Positions 3,961-13,488 of a DNA stretch of 17,194 nt are shown here, piece after piece. The notes beneath the pieces were generated by a model. That model did no database searches, was not told the DNA's origin, and saw nothing but the letters and a program-made list of their open reading frames with translations. The number at the start of each line of letters is the position of its first letter. Positions within the stretch are counted from its first letter, which is position 1. The DNA is taken from UHGV virus genome UHGV-0072086. The stretch is one strand, 5' to 3'. Made by a program: the position numbers and the translations under genes. The DNA comes from a virus.

Positions 3961-4367
3961 TCGTACCTCCTGTCGGTAAATCTGACACCCTTACCAATAG
4001 CCCATGCTGTCGTGTACTCAATCAGACTTGCCATACGCTTCACGCTCATCTGTGCGCTGCTCTCACGAATGTTGACGTATTCGCCTTCAAGCCCGGGCAA
4101 AACATCAGCTTCCTGCTTTGTCGCCACTGCATGACCGCTTATCAACAAAACCTTCCATTGTTCTGGTTTTAACCATTTATCGCACCATTGAACCTGACGT
4201 GCGATATCCGCCAGCATCGCGTGAAATTTTGCGTTCTGGTCAAGGTTGCGCTTGTAGTCAGTAATGCGGATTGTGACTGGCTTGTCTTTATCGAGTGGTG
4301 TTGCGAGGATGGCATTTATTGCAGCTTGCTGTTGTTGCTTAGTTCGGAGGAAGATTGTTTGCTTCAC
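3957..4367 (-). CDS. ninB: NinB-family recombination protein (Orf family), 136 aa
   Basis: Translation resembles lambda NinB (e.g. [22 protein letters not shown] versus lambda RSLDQNRKLWACLGDVSRQVEW); GTG start with AAGGAG RBS. Confidence 0.75.
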
Positions 4368-4378
4368 TGAATACTCCT

Positions 4379-4564
4379 TTATTTTTTATGCCTGTAACCC
4401 CATTCTTCCAGCAACCTTGCGGCGTACCACCCAAGAAACAAAGGAAAGAACATTACAATGAGATATTCCCCGCCACGGTCAATGTTCGAAATTGACCAGA
4501 TTACGATGTAACCAGTGCAGGACAGGAATATTACAAACCCCAAAAAGCTACTTCGTCGACTCAT
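4379..4564 (-). CDS. Small predicted membrane protein (about 61 aa, two hydrophobic segments)
   Basis: ORF with AAGGAG RBS 6 nt upstream of the ATG at 4562-4564 (the track's GTG at 4570 is the alternative); hydrophobic stretches FLGFVIFLSCTGYIVIW and LIVMFFPLFLGWYAA. Confidence 0.45.
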   Translation of the reverse strand: MSRRSSFLGFVIFLSCTGYIVIWSISNIDRGGEYLIVMFFPLFLGWYAARLLEEWGYRHKK

Positions 4565-4566
4565 GC

Positions 4567-4881
4567 TCACTCCTTCACTTTGATTCCAGCAGCGCGGATG
4601 TTTTCCTCATAAGCATCCATTGCATCACCGAAGCCATTGGAATAATCAACAGTAAACCCTTTGGCTAATGCTTCTCTGCTGTCGATAAACTTTGGCGCGG
4701 TTATTTCAATATCTGCTCGCGATGCCTGCCATAAAGTCCACCACTCATTTAAGGAGTGACGAATATCCATGCTTGAAAATGCGAAGTACCTATCACCATT
4801 TCTTGCCTCGGTTATCATCTCGAATGGTAATCTCAATTTTTTGGCAACGTATTCCTCAAACTGCTTTCTTGATTCGTCCAT
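4567..4881 (-). CDS. Hypothetical soluble protein, 104 aa
   Basis: ORF with GAGGG RBS, flanked by two small membrane-protein genes, in the ren position downstream of the replication genes. No family recognised. Confidence 0.55.
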   Translation of the reverse strand: MDESRKQFEEYVAKKLRLPFEMITEARNGDRYFAFSSMDIRHSLNEWWTLWQASRADIEITAPKFIDSREALAKGFTVDYSNGFGDAMDAYEENIRAAGIKVKE

Positions 4882-4898
4882 CGGTACTTACCCTCAGT

Positions 4899-5105
4899 TC
4901 AACTCACAAAACGCCACGCCACTTTTGCAACGACAACAGGCATAACACCGATAATCACCCACAGGAAAATGCTACCGAAAAGCACACCCACCAGGTCTTT
5001 ACCTTCGCCTACCAACCGGACAAAACTTCCGACAACCACAATGAACGTCGACACCATCCACATAGCACCGAGAATCCTCAATGCAGAGAAAATTAACTCA
5101 GCCAC
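4899..5105 (-). CDS. Small predicted membrane protein, 68 aa, two hydrophobic segments
   Basis: GTG start preceded by GGGGGAGAG RBS immediately after a terminator hairpin; hydrophobic stretches MWMVSTFIVVVGSFV and VLFGSIFLWVIIGVMPVVV. Confidence 0.45.
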   Translation of the reverse strand: MAELIFSALRILGAMWMVSTFIVVVGSFVRLVGEGKDLVGVLFGSIFLWVIIGVMPVVVAKVAWRFVS

Positions 5106-5118
5106 GATTTACTCTCCC

Positions 5119-5152
5119 CCAAATAAAAAGGCCTGCGATTACCAGCAGGCCT
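5119..5152 (-). terminator. tR2-like intrinsic terminator between the helicase gene and the nin region
   Basis: 8-bp stem aggcctgc (5129-5136) / gcaggcct (5145-5152) with 8-nt loop; A-tract on the + strand at 5121-5129 gives a U-tract after the hairpin on the minus strand. Confidence 0.6.
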
Positions 5153-5180
5153 GTTATTAGCTCAGTGATGTAGATGGTCA

Positions 5181-6617
5181 TCAGAATCCTCCTTTCTTCT
5201 TGGACTGCGGTTCCTCTCGTTCACGTCGGCGCATTTCAGCAGACTGTTGGTCTGTGTCATAAATAGCGCCATTTGCCTGAATGCAATACACCGTGCCGGT
5301 ATTGCCATGACGATTGAGACGAAGGATTAGTTCGGTTTCACCAGGTGGAACACTGTCATCAAAAGCGCCTTCACGATGGATCCCAACCCAATAATCGCAA
5401 TCCTGTTCAATCTGCCCTGTATCTCGTGAGTCACTTGGTAATGGGCGTTTATTGGTTCGGCTTTCCAGTGCGCGGTTAAGCTGTGTCAGAAGCACAACAA
5501 CGCAATCAAGCTCTTTGGCAAGGTTCTTCAGTCCTTTGGTGATCATGCCGTAAGCAAGGTCGTTGCGATCGGCCTTCTCAGCGGTCATTAGTGTCAGGTA
5601 ATCGACCAGAATCATGCCAACATATCCTTTTTCTCGCTTGATTCGACGGCTTTCGCTGACGATTTGAGCCAGAGATAATCCCGGCGTGTCGTCGATGTAA
5701 AGCATGTCGATTTCACTCAAGCGATTGGCTGTTTCGATCGCCCTGTTGAAGTCACCATCGTAATCACCCTGATAGCCGTCATCAGCGTCATTTGTCGCCG
5801 GAAGGTAAAAAATATTCGGGTTAACACCAGACTTCTGCCCTACCAGTTTTTCCAGTATCTGGTCACCGGGCATTTCAAGGCTGAACATCAGAGCGGGCTT
5901 TTTCTCATGCACTGCGCAGTTGATTGCCATCTGGCTGTATAGCGTCGTTTTCCCCATCTTAGGGCGAGCGCCAATGACAAACAGAGAGCCTTTCACCAGA
6001 CCTTTCGGTGACAGCATCCTGTCCAGCGATGGGATCCCTGTGCTCATTCCTCGTTGTTCGCCTGACGGGTCAAATCGCTTCTCAAGGTCGCTAACCCAGT
6101 CTTCCATGACCTCACCAAATGAGCGAAGGCCGCGACGCGATCCGGTTTTTGCATGGTCTGTCAGTTGCGTGAAAATCGCCTGAATAGCTTCGTACTTCTG
6201 CGTTGCAGTCATTCCGTTGCGGGAATAGAGCAATTCCGTCGCTTCAGTCATGCGGTTGATGGCGTAGCGTTCCATTGCGGTTTCACGAACCTGCATTGCA
6301 TAGGCAACGATGTTTGCTGCGCTTGGCGTGTTCTTTGCGATCTCAGCGATATAAGCAAAACCGCCAACAGACGCCGTTAACGATTTACGCTCCAGTTCAT
6401 CGAAAAGCGTCAGGCCATCTACTGGCTTTTGCTCCCGGTGCATTCTGGTTATTTCTTCGAAAAGGATTTTGTGTGGCCGGCTGTAAAATGAGTCAGGCTT
6501 CAGCATCGCCAGAACTTTCTGGACGCGCTCACTGCTGTCATCATCCAGAAGCAATCCACCAATCACCGCCTGCTCTGCCTCGATGCTATGGTGCGGCGCA
6601 TAAAAATTATCGGTCAT
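5181..6617 (-). CDS. DnaB-family replicative DNA helicase (phage-encoded), about 478 aa
   Basis: Translation has the DnaB N-terminal motif HSIEAEQAVIGGLLLDD, Walker A GARPKMGKTT, and DnaB-like C-terminal motifs (LTQLNR, SDSRDTGQIEQDCD). ATG at 6615-6617 with GAGGG RBS; the track's upstream GTG at 6632 is an alternative. Confidence 0.9.
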   Translation of the reverse strand: MTDNFYAPHHSIEAEQAVIGGLLLDDDSSERVQKVLAMLKPDSFYSRPHKILFEEITRMHREQKPVDGLTLFDELERKSLTASVGGFAYIAEIAKNTPSAANIVAYAMQVRETAMERYAINRMTEATELLYSRNGMTATQKYEAIQAIFTQLTDHAKTGSRRGLRSFGEVMEDWVSDLEKRFDPSGEQRGMSTGIPSLDRMLSPKGLVKGSLFVIGARPKMGKTTLYSQMAINCAVHEKKPALMFSLEMPGDQILEKLVGQKSGVNPNIFYLPATNDADDGYQGDYDGDFNRAIETANRLSEIDMLYIDDTPGLSLAQIVSESRRIKREKGYVGMILVDYLTLMTAEKADRNDLAYGMITKGLKNLAKELDCVVVLLTQLNRALESRTNKRPLPSDSRDTGQIEQDCDYWVGIHREGAFDDSVPPGETELILRLNRHGNTGTVYCIQANGAIYDTDQQSAEMRRREREEPQSKKKGGF

Positions 6618-7506: not shown

Positions 7507-7679
7507 GACCTTTCTCCTTCTGCATCAGCTTCACTTTTTCCAACTCAGCCCGGAATCGACCAGGCTGCTTGAAGCTGGACAGGAAGCGATCACGTAGTAT
7601 GTGTTTGTGAATTTTGTCCTGGTAAGGACTGAGTTGTTTTGTCATAATTACTCCCGTGGATTGATCCAGTCTTTCTACA

Positions 7680-7958
7680 TTAGGCCTCGAAGAATTCGCC
7701 GTTCTTCGGGGCTTTTTCTTTTGTCAGCATTCTGGCTACTTTCTTAGCCAGTTCCGCCAACTCCTCGTCTTCAACACCCCATTCAAGAACAGCCAGAAGC
7801 ATTCCCATTTTTGGGATGAAGCTGTCTTTCCATCGCGAAATTTGCGATTCATTAATCCCTAACGCGTCGGCAACATTTCGCTGGCCACGTACAGCAATTC
7901 GATTCAGGATGTTGCTTGTAATTGCATTCGCTTTCTTGCGAGTACTTGTAAGTTGCAT
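7680..7958 (-). CDS. cII: Transcriptional activator CII, 92 aa
   Basis: From the internal ATG at 7956-7958 (AAGGA RBS): [23 protein letters not shown]...SQISRWK...[10 protein letters not shown]..., clearly homologous to lambda CII; the leader catatgtaagtatttccttagataac matches lambda. Confidence 0.85.
7684..7722 (+). terminator. Intrinsic terminator on the strand antisense to cII (OOP-RNA-like terminator)
   Basis: Stem 7684-7694 / 7702-7712 (11 bp, one G-U) with a 7-nt loop, followed by tttttctttt at 7713-7722 on the + strand; overlaps the cII 3' end, as the lambda OOP terminator does. Confidence 0.6.
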
Positions 7959-7968
7959 ATGTAAGTAT
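7936..7968 (+). promoter_or_regulatory. Candidate PRE (CII-activated establishment promoter), antisense to the cII 5' end
   Basis: TTGC-N6-TTGT at 7936-7949 and -10-like AAGTAT at 7963-7968, arranged as in lambda PRE; a perfect TTGC-N6-TTGC also occurs at 7912-7925. Confidence 0.45.
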
Positions 7969-8037
7969 TTCCTTAGATAACAATTGATTGAATGTATGCA
8001 AATAAATGCATACACCATAGGTGTGGTTTAATTTGAT

Positions 8038-8069
8038 GCCCTTTTTCAGGGCTGGGATGTGTAAGAGCG
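8038..8069 (-). promoter_or_regulatory. nutR (boxA and boxB) N-utilisation site
   Basis: Minus-strand boxA CGCTCTTAC (revcomp of 8061-8069) and boxB GCCCTGAAAAAGGGC (revcomp of 8038-8052) immediately downstream of the cro stop, as in lambda. Confidence 0.8.
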
Positions 8070-8077
8070 GGAATGTC

Positions 8078-9430
<1,353 letters not shown>

Positions 9431-9479: not shown

Positions 9480-9560
9480 ACAATGGAGTTTGTTTTTCAC
9501 GCCCCTTTTTACAATATTTCTTGTTTACAACATACAATCTTTCTTGTAATTTTAAGCCAT
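9480..9560 (+). promoter_or_regulatory. Left operator OL (three 434-type sites) and pL promoter region
   Basis: Three ACAA-N6-TTGT sites: acaatggagtttgt (9480-9493), acaatatttcttgt (9511-9524), acaatctttcttgt (9534-9547), upstream of nutL and N; exact -35/-10 not resolved. Confidence 0.7.
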
Positions 9561-9592
9561 CAGCAGGACGCACTGACCACCATGAAGGTGAG

Positions 9593-9622
9593 GCTCTTAA
9601 AAATTAAGCCCTGAAGAAGGGC
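9593..9622 (+). promoter_or_regulatory. nutL (boxA and boxB)
   Basis: boxA-like GCTCTTAAA at 9593-9601 and boxB GCCCTGAAGAAGGGC at 9608-9622, matching lambda nutL as recalled. Confidence 0.8.
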
Positions 9623-9890: not shown

Positions 9891-10223
9891 ATGGATGCAC
9901 AAACACGCCGCCGCGAACGTCGCGCAGAGAAACAGGCTCAATGGAAAGCAGCAAATCCCCTGTTGGTTGGGGTAAGCGCAAAACCAGTTAACCGCCCTAT
10001 TCTCTCGCTGAATCGCAAACCGAAATCACGAGTAGAAAGCGCACTGAATCCGATAGACCTTACGGTGCTGGCTGAATACCACGAACAGATTGAAAGCAAC
10101 CTGCAACGTATTGAGCGCAAGAATCAGCGCACATGGTACAGCAAGCCACGCAGTGAAATGGGTGTGACCTGCTCAGGCCGCCAGAAGCAACGCGGAAAAT
10201 CAATTCCAGCTTATTACGATTGA
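9891..10223 (+). CDS. N: Antiterminator N (lambda-type), 110 aa
   Basis: Translation MDAQTRRRERRAEKQAQWKAANPLLVGVSAKPVNRPILSLNRKPKSRVESALNPIDLTVLAEYH... matches lambda N (arginine-rich boxB-binding motif at the N-terminus); AGGAGA RBS. Confidence 0.95.
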   Translation: MDAQTRRRERRAEKQAQWKAANPLLVGVSAKPVNRPILSLNRKPKSRVESALNPIDLTVLAEYHEQIESNLQRIERKNQRTWYSKPRSEMGVTCSGRQKQRGKSIPAYYD

Positions 10224-10231
10224 GGTGAGCC

Positions 10232-10369
10232 ATGCTCAAGAAAGTCAAACGCCGACTTTACAAAGAAGGTAGATATTCATGCCAGTTGCCAAAATGCGAC
10301 ACAACAAAATGGAGTGTCGACGATTGGTGTAACTGGATAGATAGATACGGAACTTGGTGGGATAAATAA
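10232..10369 (+). CDS. Possible small Cys/Trp-rich protein, 45 aa
   Basis: Not in the ORF track. ATG at 10232 with GAGGTG RBS 9 nt after the N stop; translation MLKKVKRRLYKEGRYSCQLPKCDTTKWSVDDWCNWIDRYGTWWDK. Speculative. Confidence 0.3.
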   Translation: MLKKVKRRLYKEGRYSCQLPKCDTTKWSVDDWCNWIDRYGTWWDK

Positions 10370-10426
10370 CAGGTAACTTAAGCGTATTTACTTTCGCAGC
10401 AAACCACTTATTTGAGAGGAATTAAT

Positions 10427-11050
10427 ATGTCATCAATCCGCTTAACTACGAGAATGAAAGAGGAAATCGCTCGTAACGCTTTAATTAAGTCTGGGGTCTT
10501 CACTGAACTTGAAGAAGTAACAAAGTTAAAGAACCAGCTTGCACTTGACGCCAGAGTTATTGCGTTTGGCGGTAAAAAGAAAACTGAGGAAGTGGATCAG
10601 TTATCATCCAAGTTGGTAGCTATAAGTGAAGAACTTGAAAAGATGGGATGTTCATTTTACTCATACGATGTTAGTTCTACTTCAATTTATCTGACTGTAT
10701 CTGGCAGAAGGGTTGGATGGCATTCATATGGGAAAGACGGCAACGGCGAAGATATATTGCTCCCTACTCCGACCAAAGATAAATGCATGTTTAGCGCAGA
10801 ACACGAAATAACAAAAAGGTTTGATGAAATCTGCGCATTGCAACAAAAACTTGAAGCCAAGAAAAAGGATATCGAATCAAATGTATGGGCTGCTTTGAAC
10901 TCAGTCACAACAGTTAAGCGACTTATTGAAGTTTGGCCTGAAAGCAAAGAATTGCTACCAAAAGAAGCAGATAAAGCAAGTACAGCACTTCCTGCTTTAC
11001 GGGTAGAAGATTTGAATAAGATGATTGGACTTCCTTCCGAGGCCGCATAG
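10427..11050 (+). CDS. Hypothetical protein, 207 aa, first substantial gene downstream of N
   Basis: ATG at 10427 with GAGAGGA RBS (track ORF begins 15 nt upstream at a weaker start); hydrophilic, coiled-coil-like; followed by an intrinsic terminator. No family recognised. Confidence 0.7.
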   Translation: MSSIRLTTRMKEEIARNALIKSGVFTELEEVTKLKNQLALDARVIAFGGKKKTEEVDQLSSKLVAISEELEKMGCSFYSYDVSSTSIYLTVSGRRVGWHSYGKDGNGEDILLPTPTKDKCMFSAEHEITKRFDEICALQQKLEAKKKDIESNVWAALNSVTTVKRLIEVWPESKELLPKEADKASTALPALRVEDLNKMIGLPSEAA

Positions 11051-11066
11051 TCGGCCTTTATTTTTG
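11040..11066 (+). terminator. Intrinsic terminator at the 3' end of the 207-aa gene
   Basis: Stem aggccg (11040-11045) / cggcct (11052-11057) with 6-nt loop, followed by ttatttttgg. Confidence 0.55.
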
Positions 11067-11184
11067 GCATAAACAACAGAATAAACACTGCACTGTGTAT
11101 TCATTCCAACGAGTGAATACACGGAGCAATGTCGCTCGTAACTAAACAGGAGCCGACTTGTTCTGATTATTGGAAATCTTCTTT

Positions 11185-11210
11185 GCCCTCCAGTGTGAGG
11201 GCCTTTTTAT
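11185..11210 (+). terminator. Intrinsic terminator upstream of the cIII-like gene (tL2-like)
   Basis: Stem gccctc (11185-11190) / gagggc (11197-11202) with 6-nt loop, followed by ctttttat. Confidence 0.55.
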
Positions 11211-11274
11211 ATGCATACCAATAACGCTTCATTCGAGGCGTTTTCGTTATGCAATCAAATATAAGGAGTTACCC

Positions 11275-11409
11275 ATGATGCACTTTCAGCTCGCGGGTAG
11301 CGGCGTCATGTCCGCTTTCTACCCGCACGAATCTGAATTATCACGCCGAGTTAAACAATTAATCAGAGCAGCAAAGAAACAACTGGAGGCGTTATGCGCA
11401 ATGAAATAG
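11275..11409 (+). CDS. cIII: CIII-like protein (putative FtsH inhibitor), 44 aa
   Basis: ATG at 11275 with AAGGAG RBS; translation MMHFQLAGSGVMSAFYPHESELSRRVKQLIRAAKKQLEALCAMK has a central amphipathic helix resembling lambda CIII (ESLLERITRKLRDGWKRL); position as in the lambda pL operon. Confidence 0.5.
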   Translation: MMHFQLAGSGVMSAFYPHESELSRRVKQLIRAAKKQLEALCAMK

Positions 11410-11546
11410 CCATCAATCACCAGATGCTTCGTGCTGCACAAAACAAAGCAGTAATAGCCAGATTTATTGGTGATTCCAAAATGTGGCTTGAAGCAAATAA
11501 AGCGATGAAATCAGCTATCAACCTTCCGTGGTATCGCAGGAAATGA
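11394..11546 (+). CDS. kil: Kil-like small protein, 50 aa
   Basis: Not in the ORF track. ATG at 11394 with GGAGG RBS, overlapping the cIII-like 3' end in another frame; translation MRNEIAINHQMLRAAQNKAVIARFIGDSKMWLEANKAMKSAINLPWYRRK resembles lambda Kil as I remember it (around FIGDEKMF). Confidence 0.4.
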   Translation: MRNEIAINHQMLRAAQNKAVIARFIGDSKMWLEANKAMKSAINLPWYRRK

Positions 11547-11701
11547 GTTTTACAGATAACTGGTCAGACGAAGAATTCATTCGTCAGATGAAAGAATTAA
11601 TCGGTAACGAAGGAGATATTCATGTCACTTGCAACCACAGTGAAGGAGAGCAAGTTACAGAGACGCATGTACACGCAGAAAGCTCTCTGGTATCGCCATA
11701 A
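11543..11701 (+). CDS. Possible small His/Cys-containing protein, 52 aa (alternative A in the gam position)
   Basis: ATG at 11543 overlaps the Kil-like stop (ATGA); translation MSFTDNWSDEEFIRQMKELIGNEGDIHVTCNHSEGEQVTETHVHAESSLVSP. Overlaps alternative B by about 80 nt in another frame. Confidence 0.25.
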   Translation: MSFTDNWSDEEFIRQMKELIGNEGDIHVTCNHSEGEQVTETHVHAESSLVSP

Positions 11702-11792
11702 TGGCGACCGCGAAGGAATGCGGGTATGCCTTAATTTGTCTCGAGTCGAAGTATTAAATCAGCGTTATTTCCTTGGGCCGTGTCCATTCTGA
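11622..11792 (+). CDS. Possible small protein, 56 aa (alternative B in the gam position)
   Basis: ATG at 11622 with GAAGGAG RBS; translation MSLATTVKESKLQRRMYTQKALWYRHNGDREGMRVCLNLSRVEVLNQRYFLGPCPF; stop 8 nt before the annealing-protein start. Confidence 0.25.
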   Translation: MSLATTVKESKLQRRMYTQKALWYRHNGDREGMRVCLNLSRVEVLNQRYFLGPCPF

Positions 11793-11800
11793 GGTGAATT

Positions 11801-12508
11801 ATGGATTTGAATAAATTCGATGAGCCATTCAGCCCTGAAGATATCGAATGGCGAATACAGCAAAGCGGTAAAACACGCGATGGCAAAGTGTGGGCTATGG
11901 TGCTGGCTTATGTCACGAACCGGGCAATCATGAAACGCCTGGACGATGTTTGCGGCAAAGCAGGATGGCGCAATGAATACCGCGATATTCCCAACAACGG
12001 AGGCGTTGAATGCGGCATATCAATCAGGATTGATTCCGAATGGGTAACCAAATGGGATGCTGCTGAAAACACGCAGGTAGAAGCCGTCAAAGGTGGTCGT
12101 TCAGGTGCAATGAAGCGTGCTGCCGTTCAGTGGGGAATCGGTCGGTATCTGTATAACCTTGAGGAAGGTTTCGCACAAACATCTCTCGATAAAAAGCAGG
12201 GATGGCACAGGGCAAAACTCAAGGATGGAACAGGATTTTACTGGCTCCCTCCATCGCTGCCGGGATGGGCAATCCCAGCATCAGATAACAAACCATCACC
12301 AGAAAATACCAACCAGAAATCTCCATCGGTTGACTGCGAGCAAATCCTGAAAGACTTCAGCGATTATGCGTCAACAGAAACTGACAAGAAAAAACTCATC
12401 GAGCGTTATCAGCGTGACTGGCAATTAATGGCTGGCAACGAGGAGGCGCAGGCTAAATGCGTTCAGGTAATGAACATCAGAGTTAACGAACTAAAACAGG
12501 CGGCATAA
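11801..12508 (+). CDS. Rad52/22-family single-strand annealing protein (phage recombinase), 235 aa
   Basis: Signature segment GGRSGAMKRAAVQWGIGRYLYNLEEG resembles the conserved Rad52/22 annealing-protein motif; GAGGTG RBS; occupies the bet position of the pL operon. Confidence 0.8.
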   Translation: MDLNKFDEPFSPEDIEWRIQQSGKTRDGKVWAMVLAYVTNRAIMKRLDDVCGKAGWRNEYRDIPNNGGVECGISIRIDSEWVTKWDAAENTQVEAVKGGRSGAMKRAAVQWGIGRYLYNLEEGFAQTSLDKKQGWHRAKLKDGTGFYWLPPSLPGWAIPASDNKPSPENTNQKSPSVDCEQILKDFSDYASTETDKKKLIERYQRDWQLMAGNEEAQAKCVQVMNIRVNELKQAA

Positions 12509-12976
12509 ATGTCTCACTTGGACGGAATTATTAAAAGATTCGAGTCCAGCTACAAAGTTAATGAAACAACAGGTTGCTGGGAGTCTACCTATTCAAAAAA
12601 CAAAGGAGGATACACAAAATTTGTAGCCTTTGGCGTAACAATGCTTTCTCATCGGGTTGCTTTTGAGCTTTATCACTCCCCCATTCCATCTGGGAAGATG
12701 GTTTGCCACAAATGCGATAACCCATGCTGCGTTAATCCTGAACATCTCTTTTTAGGTAGCGCGCAAGAAAACATGGACGACAAGATAGCAAAAGGAAGGC
12801 ATCGTGGAGCCAAAAAAGGTCATGCTCATCATGGTGCAAAATTAACAGAGTGGCAGGTTATAGAAATTAGGAAAAGACTCTCTGAAAAAGAGAGTCAGTA
12901 CAAGATAGCAAAAGACATGGGTGTATCTCAATCAATTATAAGCAACATAAAAATTGGCAAGAGGTGGAGCAAATGA
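12509..12976 (+). CDS. HNH endonuclease (HNH_3-like with AP2-type DNA-binding domain), 155 aa
   Basis: Motifs HRVAFELYH and [27 protein letters not shown] are typical of phage HNH endonucleases; starts directly after the annealing-protein stop and overlaps the SSB start (ATGA). Confidence 0.8.
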
Positions 12977-13488
12977 GTTCTCGCGGGATAAATAAGGTGA
13001 TCATTATTGGTCGCCTTGGGCATGATCCAGAAATCAGATATTCACCATCAGGAACGGCATTTGCAAACCTTACAGTTGCTACGTCAGAACAATGGCGTGA
13101 TAAGCAAACTGGAGAGCAAAAGGAGCATACGGAGTGGCACCGTGTGGTAATGAGCGGGAAACTGGCAGAAATTGCCAGCGAGTATCTGCGGAAAGGCTCA
13201 GAGGTTTATCTTGAAGGCAAATTGCGGACAAGAAAATGGCAGGATCAAAGTGGACAGGATCGGTTCACTACCGAAGTCATCGTAGGCGTTGGTGGAACCA
13301 TGCAAATGCTTGGTGGCAAGCAAGGAGGAAATGAACAGTCTTCTCCTCAGCGAAATAACGGTCAGCAACAAAGACAGCAACCTCAGCAGCAGGGAAATCA
13401 CAGCGAACCACCTATGGAGTTTGACGACGATATACCATTTGCGCCAGTAACTCTCCCCTTCCCTCGTCACGCTATTCACGCAATTTAA
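12973..13488 (+). CDS. ssb: Single-stranded DNA-binding protein SSB, about 171 aa
   Basis: From the ATG at 12973: [48 protein letters not shown]..., a clear OB-fold SSB (compare E. coli SSB MASRGVNKVILVGNLG), with Gln/Gly-rich tail and acidic C-terminus DDDIPF. Confidence 0.9.

Follow-up and report, generated by a model that had tools for sequence, protein, structure and literature searches.

The window analyzed here was the whole 17,194-nt DNA stretch of the viral genome UHGV-0072086; it covered early genes of a lambdoid phage of the imm434 type, and its pL operon was read on the plus (+) strand. Two open reading frames (ORFs) lay directly behind the antiterminator gene N (9891–10223, +; stop codon TGA at 10221–10223), whose product was near-identical to lambda N at its N-terminus and was annotated as "antitermination protein N" in the matching Escherichia coli genomes and in HK542: (i) a 45-amino-acid (aa) ORF at 10232–10369 (+) and (ii) a 207-aa ORF at 10427–11050 (+). 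An earlier note on this DNA had placed both ORFs at these positions, where the ORF list contained them, and had stated that neither product resembled anything it recognized; this remained so with respect to function, but the two products belonged to named families, DUF5484 and Nmad5, respectively. Both ORFs were real genes beyond chance, because of their Pfam and PHROG matches, the ratio of non-synonymous to synonymous substitution rates (dN/dS) of 0.30 for Nmad5, and the presence of DUF5484 homologues in phages, and as members of already catalogued families they did not constitute a new kind of element.

The 207-aa protein matched Pfam PF18757 (Nmad5, "nucleotide modification associated domain 5") with an E value of 1.2e-71 and a score of 241.5 bits against a cut-off of 27, and the match was full-length, with residues 4–203 corresponding to profile positions 1–206 of 206; it also matched phrog_1965 (E 5.9e-84), and its RefSeq product name was "Nmad5 family putative nucleotide modification protein". 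Nothing set it apart from other members of PF18757: like them, it stood alone at about 200 aa and contained both conserved motifs, W-P-E-x-x-E-L-x-P and L-N-x-M-I-G-L-P, and it shared with the family the N-terminal R-L-T...N-A-x-x-K-x-G, a G-G loop, W-P-E...L-x-P, and the C-terminal L-N-x-M-I-G-L-P. The family comprised 2301 clusters at 50% identity (E ≤1e-3), the best 150 of these being about 200 aa long, and no domain fusion was seen among 102 Nmad5 profile hits, the full-length ones of which measured 190–251 aa. No Pfam family besides Nmad5 gave a significant match; the weak co-hits YfjL_C, P4Ha_N, and SKA2 were not reproduced across 53 family members and were dismissed as coiled-coil noise. 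NCBIfam gave no match for the 207-aa protein, PADLOC-DB gave none for either ORF at E ≤0.1, and the accessible literature on PF18757, phrog_1965, DUF5484, mEp235, HK542, HK244, and PhiR12 yielded nothing relevant. Translation was assigned to ATG 10427 rather than to the upstream TTG 10412, because homologues began with MSSIRLT or MSxxRLT. The good ribosome-binding site (RBS) and the hydrophilic character ascribed to this gene by the earlier note were both borne out: the Shine–Dalgarno sequence GAGAGG (10414–10419) was spaced 7 nt from the ATG, and the protein had a grand average of hydropathy (GRAVY) of -0.35 and an isoelectric point of 6.2. Of 5426 complete E. coli genomes, 211 (3.9%) had an annotation for a near-identical Nmad5 protein; such proteins were also present in HK542, mEp235, Kapi1, and many Stx-converting phages, and the protein in the window was 97–100% identical to catalogued E. 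coli prophage proteins.

The sequence comparison of lambdoid loci was applied to 80 near-identical viral contigs together with four genome loci (84 in total). A scan of the genome collection yielded only four loci. Within E. coli, Nmad5 was 96–100% identical at the amino-acid level while standing behind N alleles of 33–100% identity; it was always the first large gene after N, usually began about 11 nt past the N stop codon, and headed a lambdoid operon carrying Rad52/Erf recombinases, SSB, and Abc2, and the downstream genes differed between loci. The homology started exactly at 10396 in 60 of the 81 related E. coli loci, which marked the left junction of a mobile Nmad5 cassette (junction region 10396–10426, +), while the right-hand ends of homology were scattered over 11080–11268, with the shortest shared segment ending at 11080; none of the related E. 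coli copies had lost the terminator hairpin behind the ORF (see below). The mobile unit was promoterless and sharply bounded, and it was composed of RBS, ORF, and terminator hairpin. The slot after N was a polymorphic accessory position, as the earlier note had proposed, with divergent N alleles, variable downstream genes, a limited share of the complete E. coli genomes, and phages such as phi458 harboring different genes at the same place. In lambda, sieB and ral occupy the genome position after N. The lambda ral/sieB/ea10 region had an equal map position in the pL operon and was likewise accessory and mosaic, but it displayed no sequence or family similarity to the window genes, for which Pfam and PHROG gave only Nmad5 and DUF5484.

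The 66 distinct Nmad5 alleles had the above dN/dS of 0.30 as their median pairwise value, and their amino-acid changes clustered at residues 50–125, the C-terminal motifs being almost invariant. Among E. coli alleles of at least 95% identity, site 116 was T, N, I, E, or K and site 13 was E, K, V, D, or G, and this variation at codons 13 and 116 may reflect site-specific diversifying selection. Many records of Stx2a-converting phages (e.g., LC616058.1, 11132–11653) matched only Nmad5 residues 34–207 in one piece and had a second Nmad5 match elsewhere in the record, and the copies in these phages may be N-terminally truncated or rearranged.

The 45-aa ORF started with ATG 10232, 8 nt past the N stop codon, with which its Shine–Dalgarno sequence GAGGTG (10222–10227) overlapped. 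Its product was a member of Pfam DUF5484 (PF17583; E 2.6e-12, 46.7 bits versus a gathering cut-off of 27) and matched phrog_1871 (E 1.4e-22). Its relatives were found by tblastn in 1037 phage records, which were mainly T-even-like (gene 55.4), at about 40–50% identity and mostly below 60%; a DUF5484 homologue was also carried by the temperate Erwinia phage phiEt88, likewise 3′ of the repressor. The product was of the same length as that of RB32 55.4 and about 50% identical to it, and the two had in common the pattern K-R...G-x-Y...P...T...W...W...I-D...G-x-W; T4 gene 55.4 sits in the T-even nrd/gene 55 cluster of small early ORFs, whereas the 45-aa ORF was located in a temperate lambdoid pL operon and had three non-conserved cysteines. 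An alignment of five distant DUF5484 members, including the RB32 55.4, phiEt88, KMI11, and SonariX homologues, had 13 invariant positions, whose residue types were Lys, Arg, Gly, Tyr, Pro, Thr, Trp, Ile, and Asp, with no Cys; C17, C22, and C33 were replaced by T/I, G/R, and I, respectively. The earlier description of a Cys/Trp-rich product was right about the tryptophans, which were conserved, but not about the cysteines; a zinc-ribbon or other zinc-binding Cys-cluster mini-protein was rejected on account of the unconserved cysteines, and the residue pattern identified the product as a Trp-rich mini-protein instead.

DUF5484 was carried by 157 complete E. coli genomes, and in each of the 30 of these that were listed, the NCBI Prokaryotic Genome Annotation Pipeline had given the 45-aa ORF no annotation. 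The DUF5484 ORF was also unannotated in phage phi458, and in phiEt88 an antisense ORF was annotated across it. DUF5484 was present in only 6 of the 84 Nmad5 loci, and most E. coli copies of it preceded other sequence; a functional pairing of DUF5484 with Nmad5 was therefore rejected, and the DUF5484 gene was an independent small early gene without a functional tie to Nmad5.

The upstream part of the operon contained three 434-type OL operators (ACAA-N6-TTGT at 9480–9493, 9511–9524, and 9534–9547, +), which overlapped a putative pL promoter at about 9525–9553 (+; TTTACA, 17 nt, TAATTT, the hexamers being read from the sequence by eye). A pattern search of the window found 434-type operators at 8307–8342 and 9480–9547, five sites in all versus 0.46 expected by chance. 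These were followed by a segment at about 9590–9622 (+) that contained a boxA-like GGCTCTTA (9592–9599) and a boxB hairpin GCCCTGAAGAAGGGC (9608–9622), the stem of which was found by the terminator/hairpin scan. By comparison with the known lambda nutL sequence, we take 9592–9622 to be nutL. The intrinsic terminator that the earlier note had seen at the 3′ end of the 207-aa gene was recovered as a terminator-like element at 11039–11068 (+), which overlapped the Nmad5 stop codon: its hairpin (11039–11058) had a 7-bp GC-rich stem with five GC pairs and a 6-nt loop and was followed by TATTTTTGG, in accord with the pattern of a Rho-independent terminator, and the T-run behind the hairpin read TTATTTTTGG; its predicted fold had an energy of -11 kcal/mol and a modest z-score of -1.74 against shuffled sequence. 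Two more terminator-like hairpins were found by the scan at 11185–11202 and 11223–11242 (+) in the variable 224-nt spacer between Nmad5 and cIII (11051–11274), in which the homology of related phages broke at several alternative points and no Rfam family was detected.

A simple pattern scan of the plus strand, begun at 9400 upstream of pL, detected no terminator-like site between nutL and the hairpin at 11039, and the element at 11039–11068 was the first terminator-like site downstream of pL. The absence of such a site between nutL and the 3′ end of Nmad5 makes it more likely that Nmad5 is immediate-early and that N, the 45-aa ORF, and Nmad5 are carried by one primary N-independent transcript, and the earlier designation of the gene as N-antiterminated became doubtful.

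The structure of Nmad5 was predicted twice with AlphaFold2, from alignments of 28 and of 47 sequences; the runs gave confidence scores (predicted local distance difference test, pLDDT) of 84.7 and 87.4 and the same body at pLDDT >90. The model was composed of an N-terminal strand, three helices within residues 8–72, a beta-meander (83–122), a 32-residue helix (127–158), a small helical C-terminal part, a disordered linker (183–191; pLDDT <50), and a terminal helix (193–200; pLDDT about 60); Nmad5 was thus modeled as a single-domain alpha/beta protein with a flexibly tethered C-terminal peptide. The comparison of a predicted model with known structures, which the earlier note had proposed as a check, gave no fold match among solved structures (Foldseek, best E 0.63); the viral structure library BFVD returned only Nmad5 relatives and unnamed proteins, and a PDB sequence search found nothing below E 0.4, whether the query was the protein alone or a profile of 53 sequences. 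Across 47 diverse Nmad5 sequences, the conserved residues were hydrophobic, Gly, Pro, Arg, Lys, and Glu (e.g., R5, K21, R43, K164, R165, E172, K174, and E175); no His, Cys, or Ser was conserved above about 60%, and Asp125 reached about 70%. The most conserved motif was T162-x-K164-R165-L-I-E-x-W170-P-E172-x-K-E-L-x-P178, and the conserved C-terminal peptide read L-P-A-L-x-V-x-D-L-N-x-M-I-G-L-P. This pattern of conservation argues against an enzyme, if not conclusively.

The sequence comparison was also applied to distant contexts of Nmad5, with 80 divergent viral contigs and 10 prophage/phage loci (90 in total), the viral set coming from one peptide-pattern scan and being redundant. Nmad5 occurred across many Proteobacteria, in phages that were temperate as well as lytic, and all the distant homologues checked, including those of Dhillonvirus and phage Athena1, were full-length Nmad5 domains. 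The commonest gene order, beside a cI-like repressor, was a 300-aa protein (phrog_6784), a DUF2800 PD-(D/E)XK nuclease, an Enc34-type SSB, and Nmad5, followed by an opposite-strand insert in some cases and then by a family-A DNA polymerase, a VRR-NUC nuclease, and an SNF2 helicase, with a VapE-like primase-helicase on the other arm; the gaps between SSB and Nmad5 were mostly about 20–50 nt. In this redundant sample, tblastn counted the family-A polymerase in 47 of the 90 loci, the DUF2800 nuclease in 42, the Enc34-type SSB in 39, the SNF2 helicase in 33, and a thymidylate-synthase-like gene within 7 kb in 3. Separate E. coli and Salmonella lineages of Nmad5, about 30% identical to that of the window, had the same SSB–Nmad5–polymerase order, and in some prophages Nmad5 headed the replication operon directly after the repressor. 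Other arrangements included (i) a ParB-like gene and a ResIII helicase 3′ of Nmad5 in some loci, (ii) Nmad5 5′ of replication protein O in phage Athena1, (iii) an N4-like phage with thymidylate synthase and polymerase genes next to Nmad5, and (iv) Nmad5 adjoining a thymidylate-synthase-like gene in the YuA-like phage PAE1.

The module of phage Enc34 was reported to contain four hypothetical proteins (PMC5686142), and Enc34-like modules had, between their Enc34-type SSB and family-A polymerase, an unnamed gene of the same Pfam family as the window protein, with equal size and about 30% identity; it was likewise early, and it was co-directional with SSB, nuclease, and polymerase. In contrast to these modules, the lambdoid phage had no phage polymerase, DUF2800 nuclease, or Enc34-type SSB but a Rad52-like recombinase, a bacterial-type SSB, and a DnaB-like helicase. 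Three E. coli prophages with the polymerase-type module (L180, L181, and L184) contained variable opposite-strand inserts at about 7640–8330 and 10800–13200: the site separating Nmad5 from the polymerase held either a gene of the UCP028583 family or small ORFs, and the site separating the polymerase from SNF2 encoded either a protein with a BstA_C domain or a DNA methylase. Both sites have the look of hotspots for defence genes within the replication operon.

The only experimental link of Nmad5 to a phenotype concerned its homologue in Dhillonvirus and Tmn, a defence system. Spontaneous Tmn-escape mutants of Dhillonvirus carried K216E or K296E in nmad5, and reverting the change restored Tmn sensitivity, while deletion of nmad5 gave no escape, neither sensitizing the phage nor rescuing it from Tmn; the gene was uncloneable, apparently because it was toxic (PMC11846954). 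A later preprint reports that Tmn recognizes T2 RIIB (PMC13001434). In the Dhillonvirus phage SM_S22, the nmad5 product (CDS6) contained the Nmad5 domain at residues 81–333 (E 1e-55), with its C-terminal 100 residues 31% identical to those of the window protein, and K296 aligned with R165 of the latter, within T-x-K-[KR]-L-I-E-x-W-P-E of the family's most conserved motif. Unlike the window gene, SM_S22 nmad5 encoded a longer protein and was a lone opposite-strand gene among the head genes of a lytic siphovirus. As annotated, SM_S22 CDS0006 (4296–5300) encoded 334 aa and overlapped the opposite-strand scaffolding gene by about 200 nt; its annotated start is probably 80 codons too far upstream, with the N-terminal 80 residues untranslated, and this shift would match the 80-residue offset between K296 in SM_S22 and K216 in SMA8 (PMC11846954).

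Taken with the predicted structure, these contexts lead us to propose tentatively that Nmad5 is a non-enzymatic, very early accessory of DNA replication/recombination, or a host-directed adaptor, that acts by binding. It would be produced as soon as infection or induction begins, on the pL transcript together with N and upstream of the first terminator-like hairpin; its predicted helical-bundle/beta-meander body would carry the conserved basic/acidic motif, followed by the tethered C-terminal peptide, and it would act through binding, without catalysis. The partner would be replication/recombination DNA intermediates or something common to all Nmad5 contexts, most likely a conserved host replisome or repair protein, and the effect would be to favor phage DNA synthesis or recombination. 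As partner, we prefer a host protein or DNA itself because lambdoid phages lack the phage polymerase found elsewhere and because the tethered C-terminal peptide is conserved, and the toxicity reported for the Dhillonvirus homologue is in keeping with a binding activity directed at the host. The earlier note had counted a match to a known replication or recombination accessory protein as an outcome against its own reading of the gene as host-interaction cargo; no such match was found, but the replication-module neighborhoods that dominate the wider family point towards that outcome, on context only. A more specific version, in which the C-terminal peptide would dock on a conserved bacterial replisome or repair protein, so that host DNA metabolism is diverted or surveillance blinded, and in which the R165 surface would be sensed by Tmn-like systems, is rather doubtful. 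Several points weigh against the proposal of a replication/recombination accessory or adaptor. All the functional evidence comes by association, and neither a DNA- or protein-binding domain nor a fold match was recognized; upon dereplication at 70% identity, the polymerase was nearby in only 10 of 33 lineages. Nmad5 is dispensable in lambdoid phages, being absent from most N-bearing prophages, and, like cargo genes, it is passed on as a cassette with no promoter of its own; the Dhillonvirus gene stands alone on the opposite strand among head genes. The amino-acid variation among near-identical alleles (dN/dS and site 116, see above) is high and would also fit an arms-race protein, and the sole experiment on a homologue concerned a defence system, not replication.

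The main competitor is an immediate-early inhibitor or decoy directed against a host immune system or nuclease that acts on incoming or replicating phage DNA. The position of Nmad5 as the first large gene after N, ahead of the first terminator-like site, would allow the earliest possible synthesis; the cassette is accessory and bounded and occurs in a small fraction of complete E. coli genomes, its non-synonymous variation is elevated with multi-allelic sites, and the Dhillonvirus homologue alters Tmn sensitivity and appears toxic on cloning (PMC11846954). The synteny with replication genes would be compatible with this role as well. The anti-nuclease genes T7 gp5.9, lambda Gam, and P22 Abc2 lie within replication/recombination modules. 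However, no sequence or fold similarity to a characterized anti-restriction inhibitor was found among Pfam models and solved or predicted structures, and neither Pfam, PDB, nor BFVD related Nmad5 to any known anti-defence protein or fold; the Dhillonvirus deletion has no effect on Tmn (PMC11846954), the gene order in replication modules is fixed across many genera while anti-defence cargo usually turns over faster, and Abc2 is already available in the window against RecBCD. The presence of Abc2 here and in HK542 also makes it unlikely that Nmad5 is the RecBCD inhibitor of this phage. The anti-restriction, inhibitor, or abortive-infection role suggested by the earlier note accordingly found no support in Pfam, PADLOC, NCBIfam, PDB, or BFVD, the Tmn link of a homologue notwithstanding, and an anti-defence function is considered unlikely. 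Superinfection exclusion or abortive infection that protects the lysogen in the manner of lambda sieB is hardly credible: Nmad5 occupies the sieB/ral position of lambda, but no sigma-70-like promoter was found 5′ of it, which leaves pL, repressed in the lysogen, as the sole route of expression; the hydrophilic protein has no predicted membrane segments and no PADLOC match, and homologues are common in strictly lytic phages. An early regulator or host-shutoff factor, binding RNA polymerase, the nucleoid, or the division apparatus as a counterpart of its neighbor Kil, would agree with the immediate-early position by N, cIII, and kil, with the place of Nmad5 as first gene after the repressor in several prophages, and with the toxicity of the Dhillonvirus homologue (PMC11846954); it is nevertheless quite improbable, since no helix-turn-helix (HTH) or other regulator domain was found in Nmad5 and in about 40 loci the tight SSB–Nmad5–polymerase arrangement speaks for DNA metabolism, not transcription.

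A part in DNA base hypermodification, as implied by the family name, which derives from a comparative-genomic study cited in PMC11846954, is highly unlikely. In YuA/M6-like Pseudomonas phages, the homologue stands beside a thymidylate-synthase-like gene and a 5′-deoxynucleotidase gene, upstream of the polymerase, and the cassette for thymidine hypermodification in SN1 and M6 has Nmad5 among its listed members (PMC9476957). This association would also be explained if the cassette had merely been inserted beside a replication module that already held Nmad5. Moreover, the 17-kb window contained no hydroxymethylase, kinase, pyrophosphorylase, glycosyltransferase, or methylase gene, so that the neighborhood link to nucleotide/base modification enzymes on which the family was named was absent here (membership in Nmad5 is unaffected, the link being a naming rationale and not a sequence criterion); the thymidylate-synthase-like gene was far rarer than the polymerase in the 90 loci, and conserved catalytic-type residues were lacking. 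Nmad5 is probably not a base-modifying enzyme, and the data suggest that the general association of the family is with phage replication and recombination genes, its database name reflecting the minority YuA/M6-like context.

Further downstream in the pL operon, cIII (11275–11409, +; Pfam cIII, E 7.8e-30) and kil (11394–11546, +; Lambda_Kil, E 1.7e-20) were followed by a small ORF, a Rad52-family recombinase gene, an HNH endonuclease gene, SSB, Abc2, and an Ea22-like gene, while the opposite arm of the window encoded a DnaB-like helicase, NinB, YbcO, RusA, Q, and a holin; neither Rfam nor a tRNA scan gave a match anywhere in the window. The small ORF (57 aa; 11528–11701, +) lay directly 5′ of the Rad52-family gene and matched phrog_2123 ("recombinase", E 9e-42); in related loci it co-occurred with Rad52-type genes (97–100% identical) and with more distant recombinase genes (about 29% identical), and it may encode a small recombination cofactor. 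The HNH endonuclease gene, with an HTH tail (12509–12976, +), was located between the Rad52-family recombinase gene and SSB; it was present in just 3 of the 84 related loci plus one 35% match, Rad52 and SSB being otherwise adjacent, and it looks like a mobile homing-endonuclease insertion. The 434-like repressor gene (8397–9029) was followed just 3′ by an ORF of at most 158 aa (8954–9430, +) in the position of lambda rexAB, which overlaps the end of the repressor gene if its upstream start is used. This ORF matched phrog_2651 (E 2e-58) but no Pfam family and recurred together with the 434 immunity region in related loci; from an internal start its product would have a signal-peptide-like N-terminus, and it is a candidate envelope protein expressed in the lysogen.

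The Nmad5 family is very large, early-expressed, and without a matching fold, and its name is probably misleading. Since a homologue modulates Tmn sensitivity, the answer to what Nmad5 does could bear on phage engineering, and the lambdoid copy, residing in tractable phages (HK542, mEp235, and the imm434 phage of this window), offers a convenient entry to the function of the family. If the version with docking on a host replisome or repair protein proved true, Nmad5 would be a misnamed immediate-early protein of phages, new in structure and widespread, with >2000 clusters at 50% identity.

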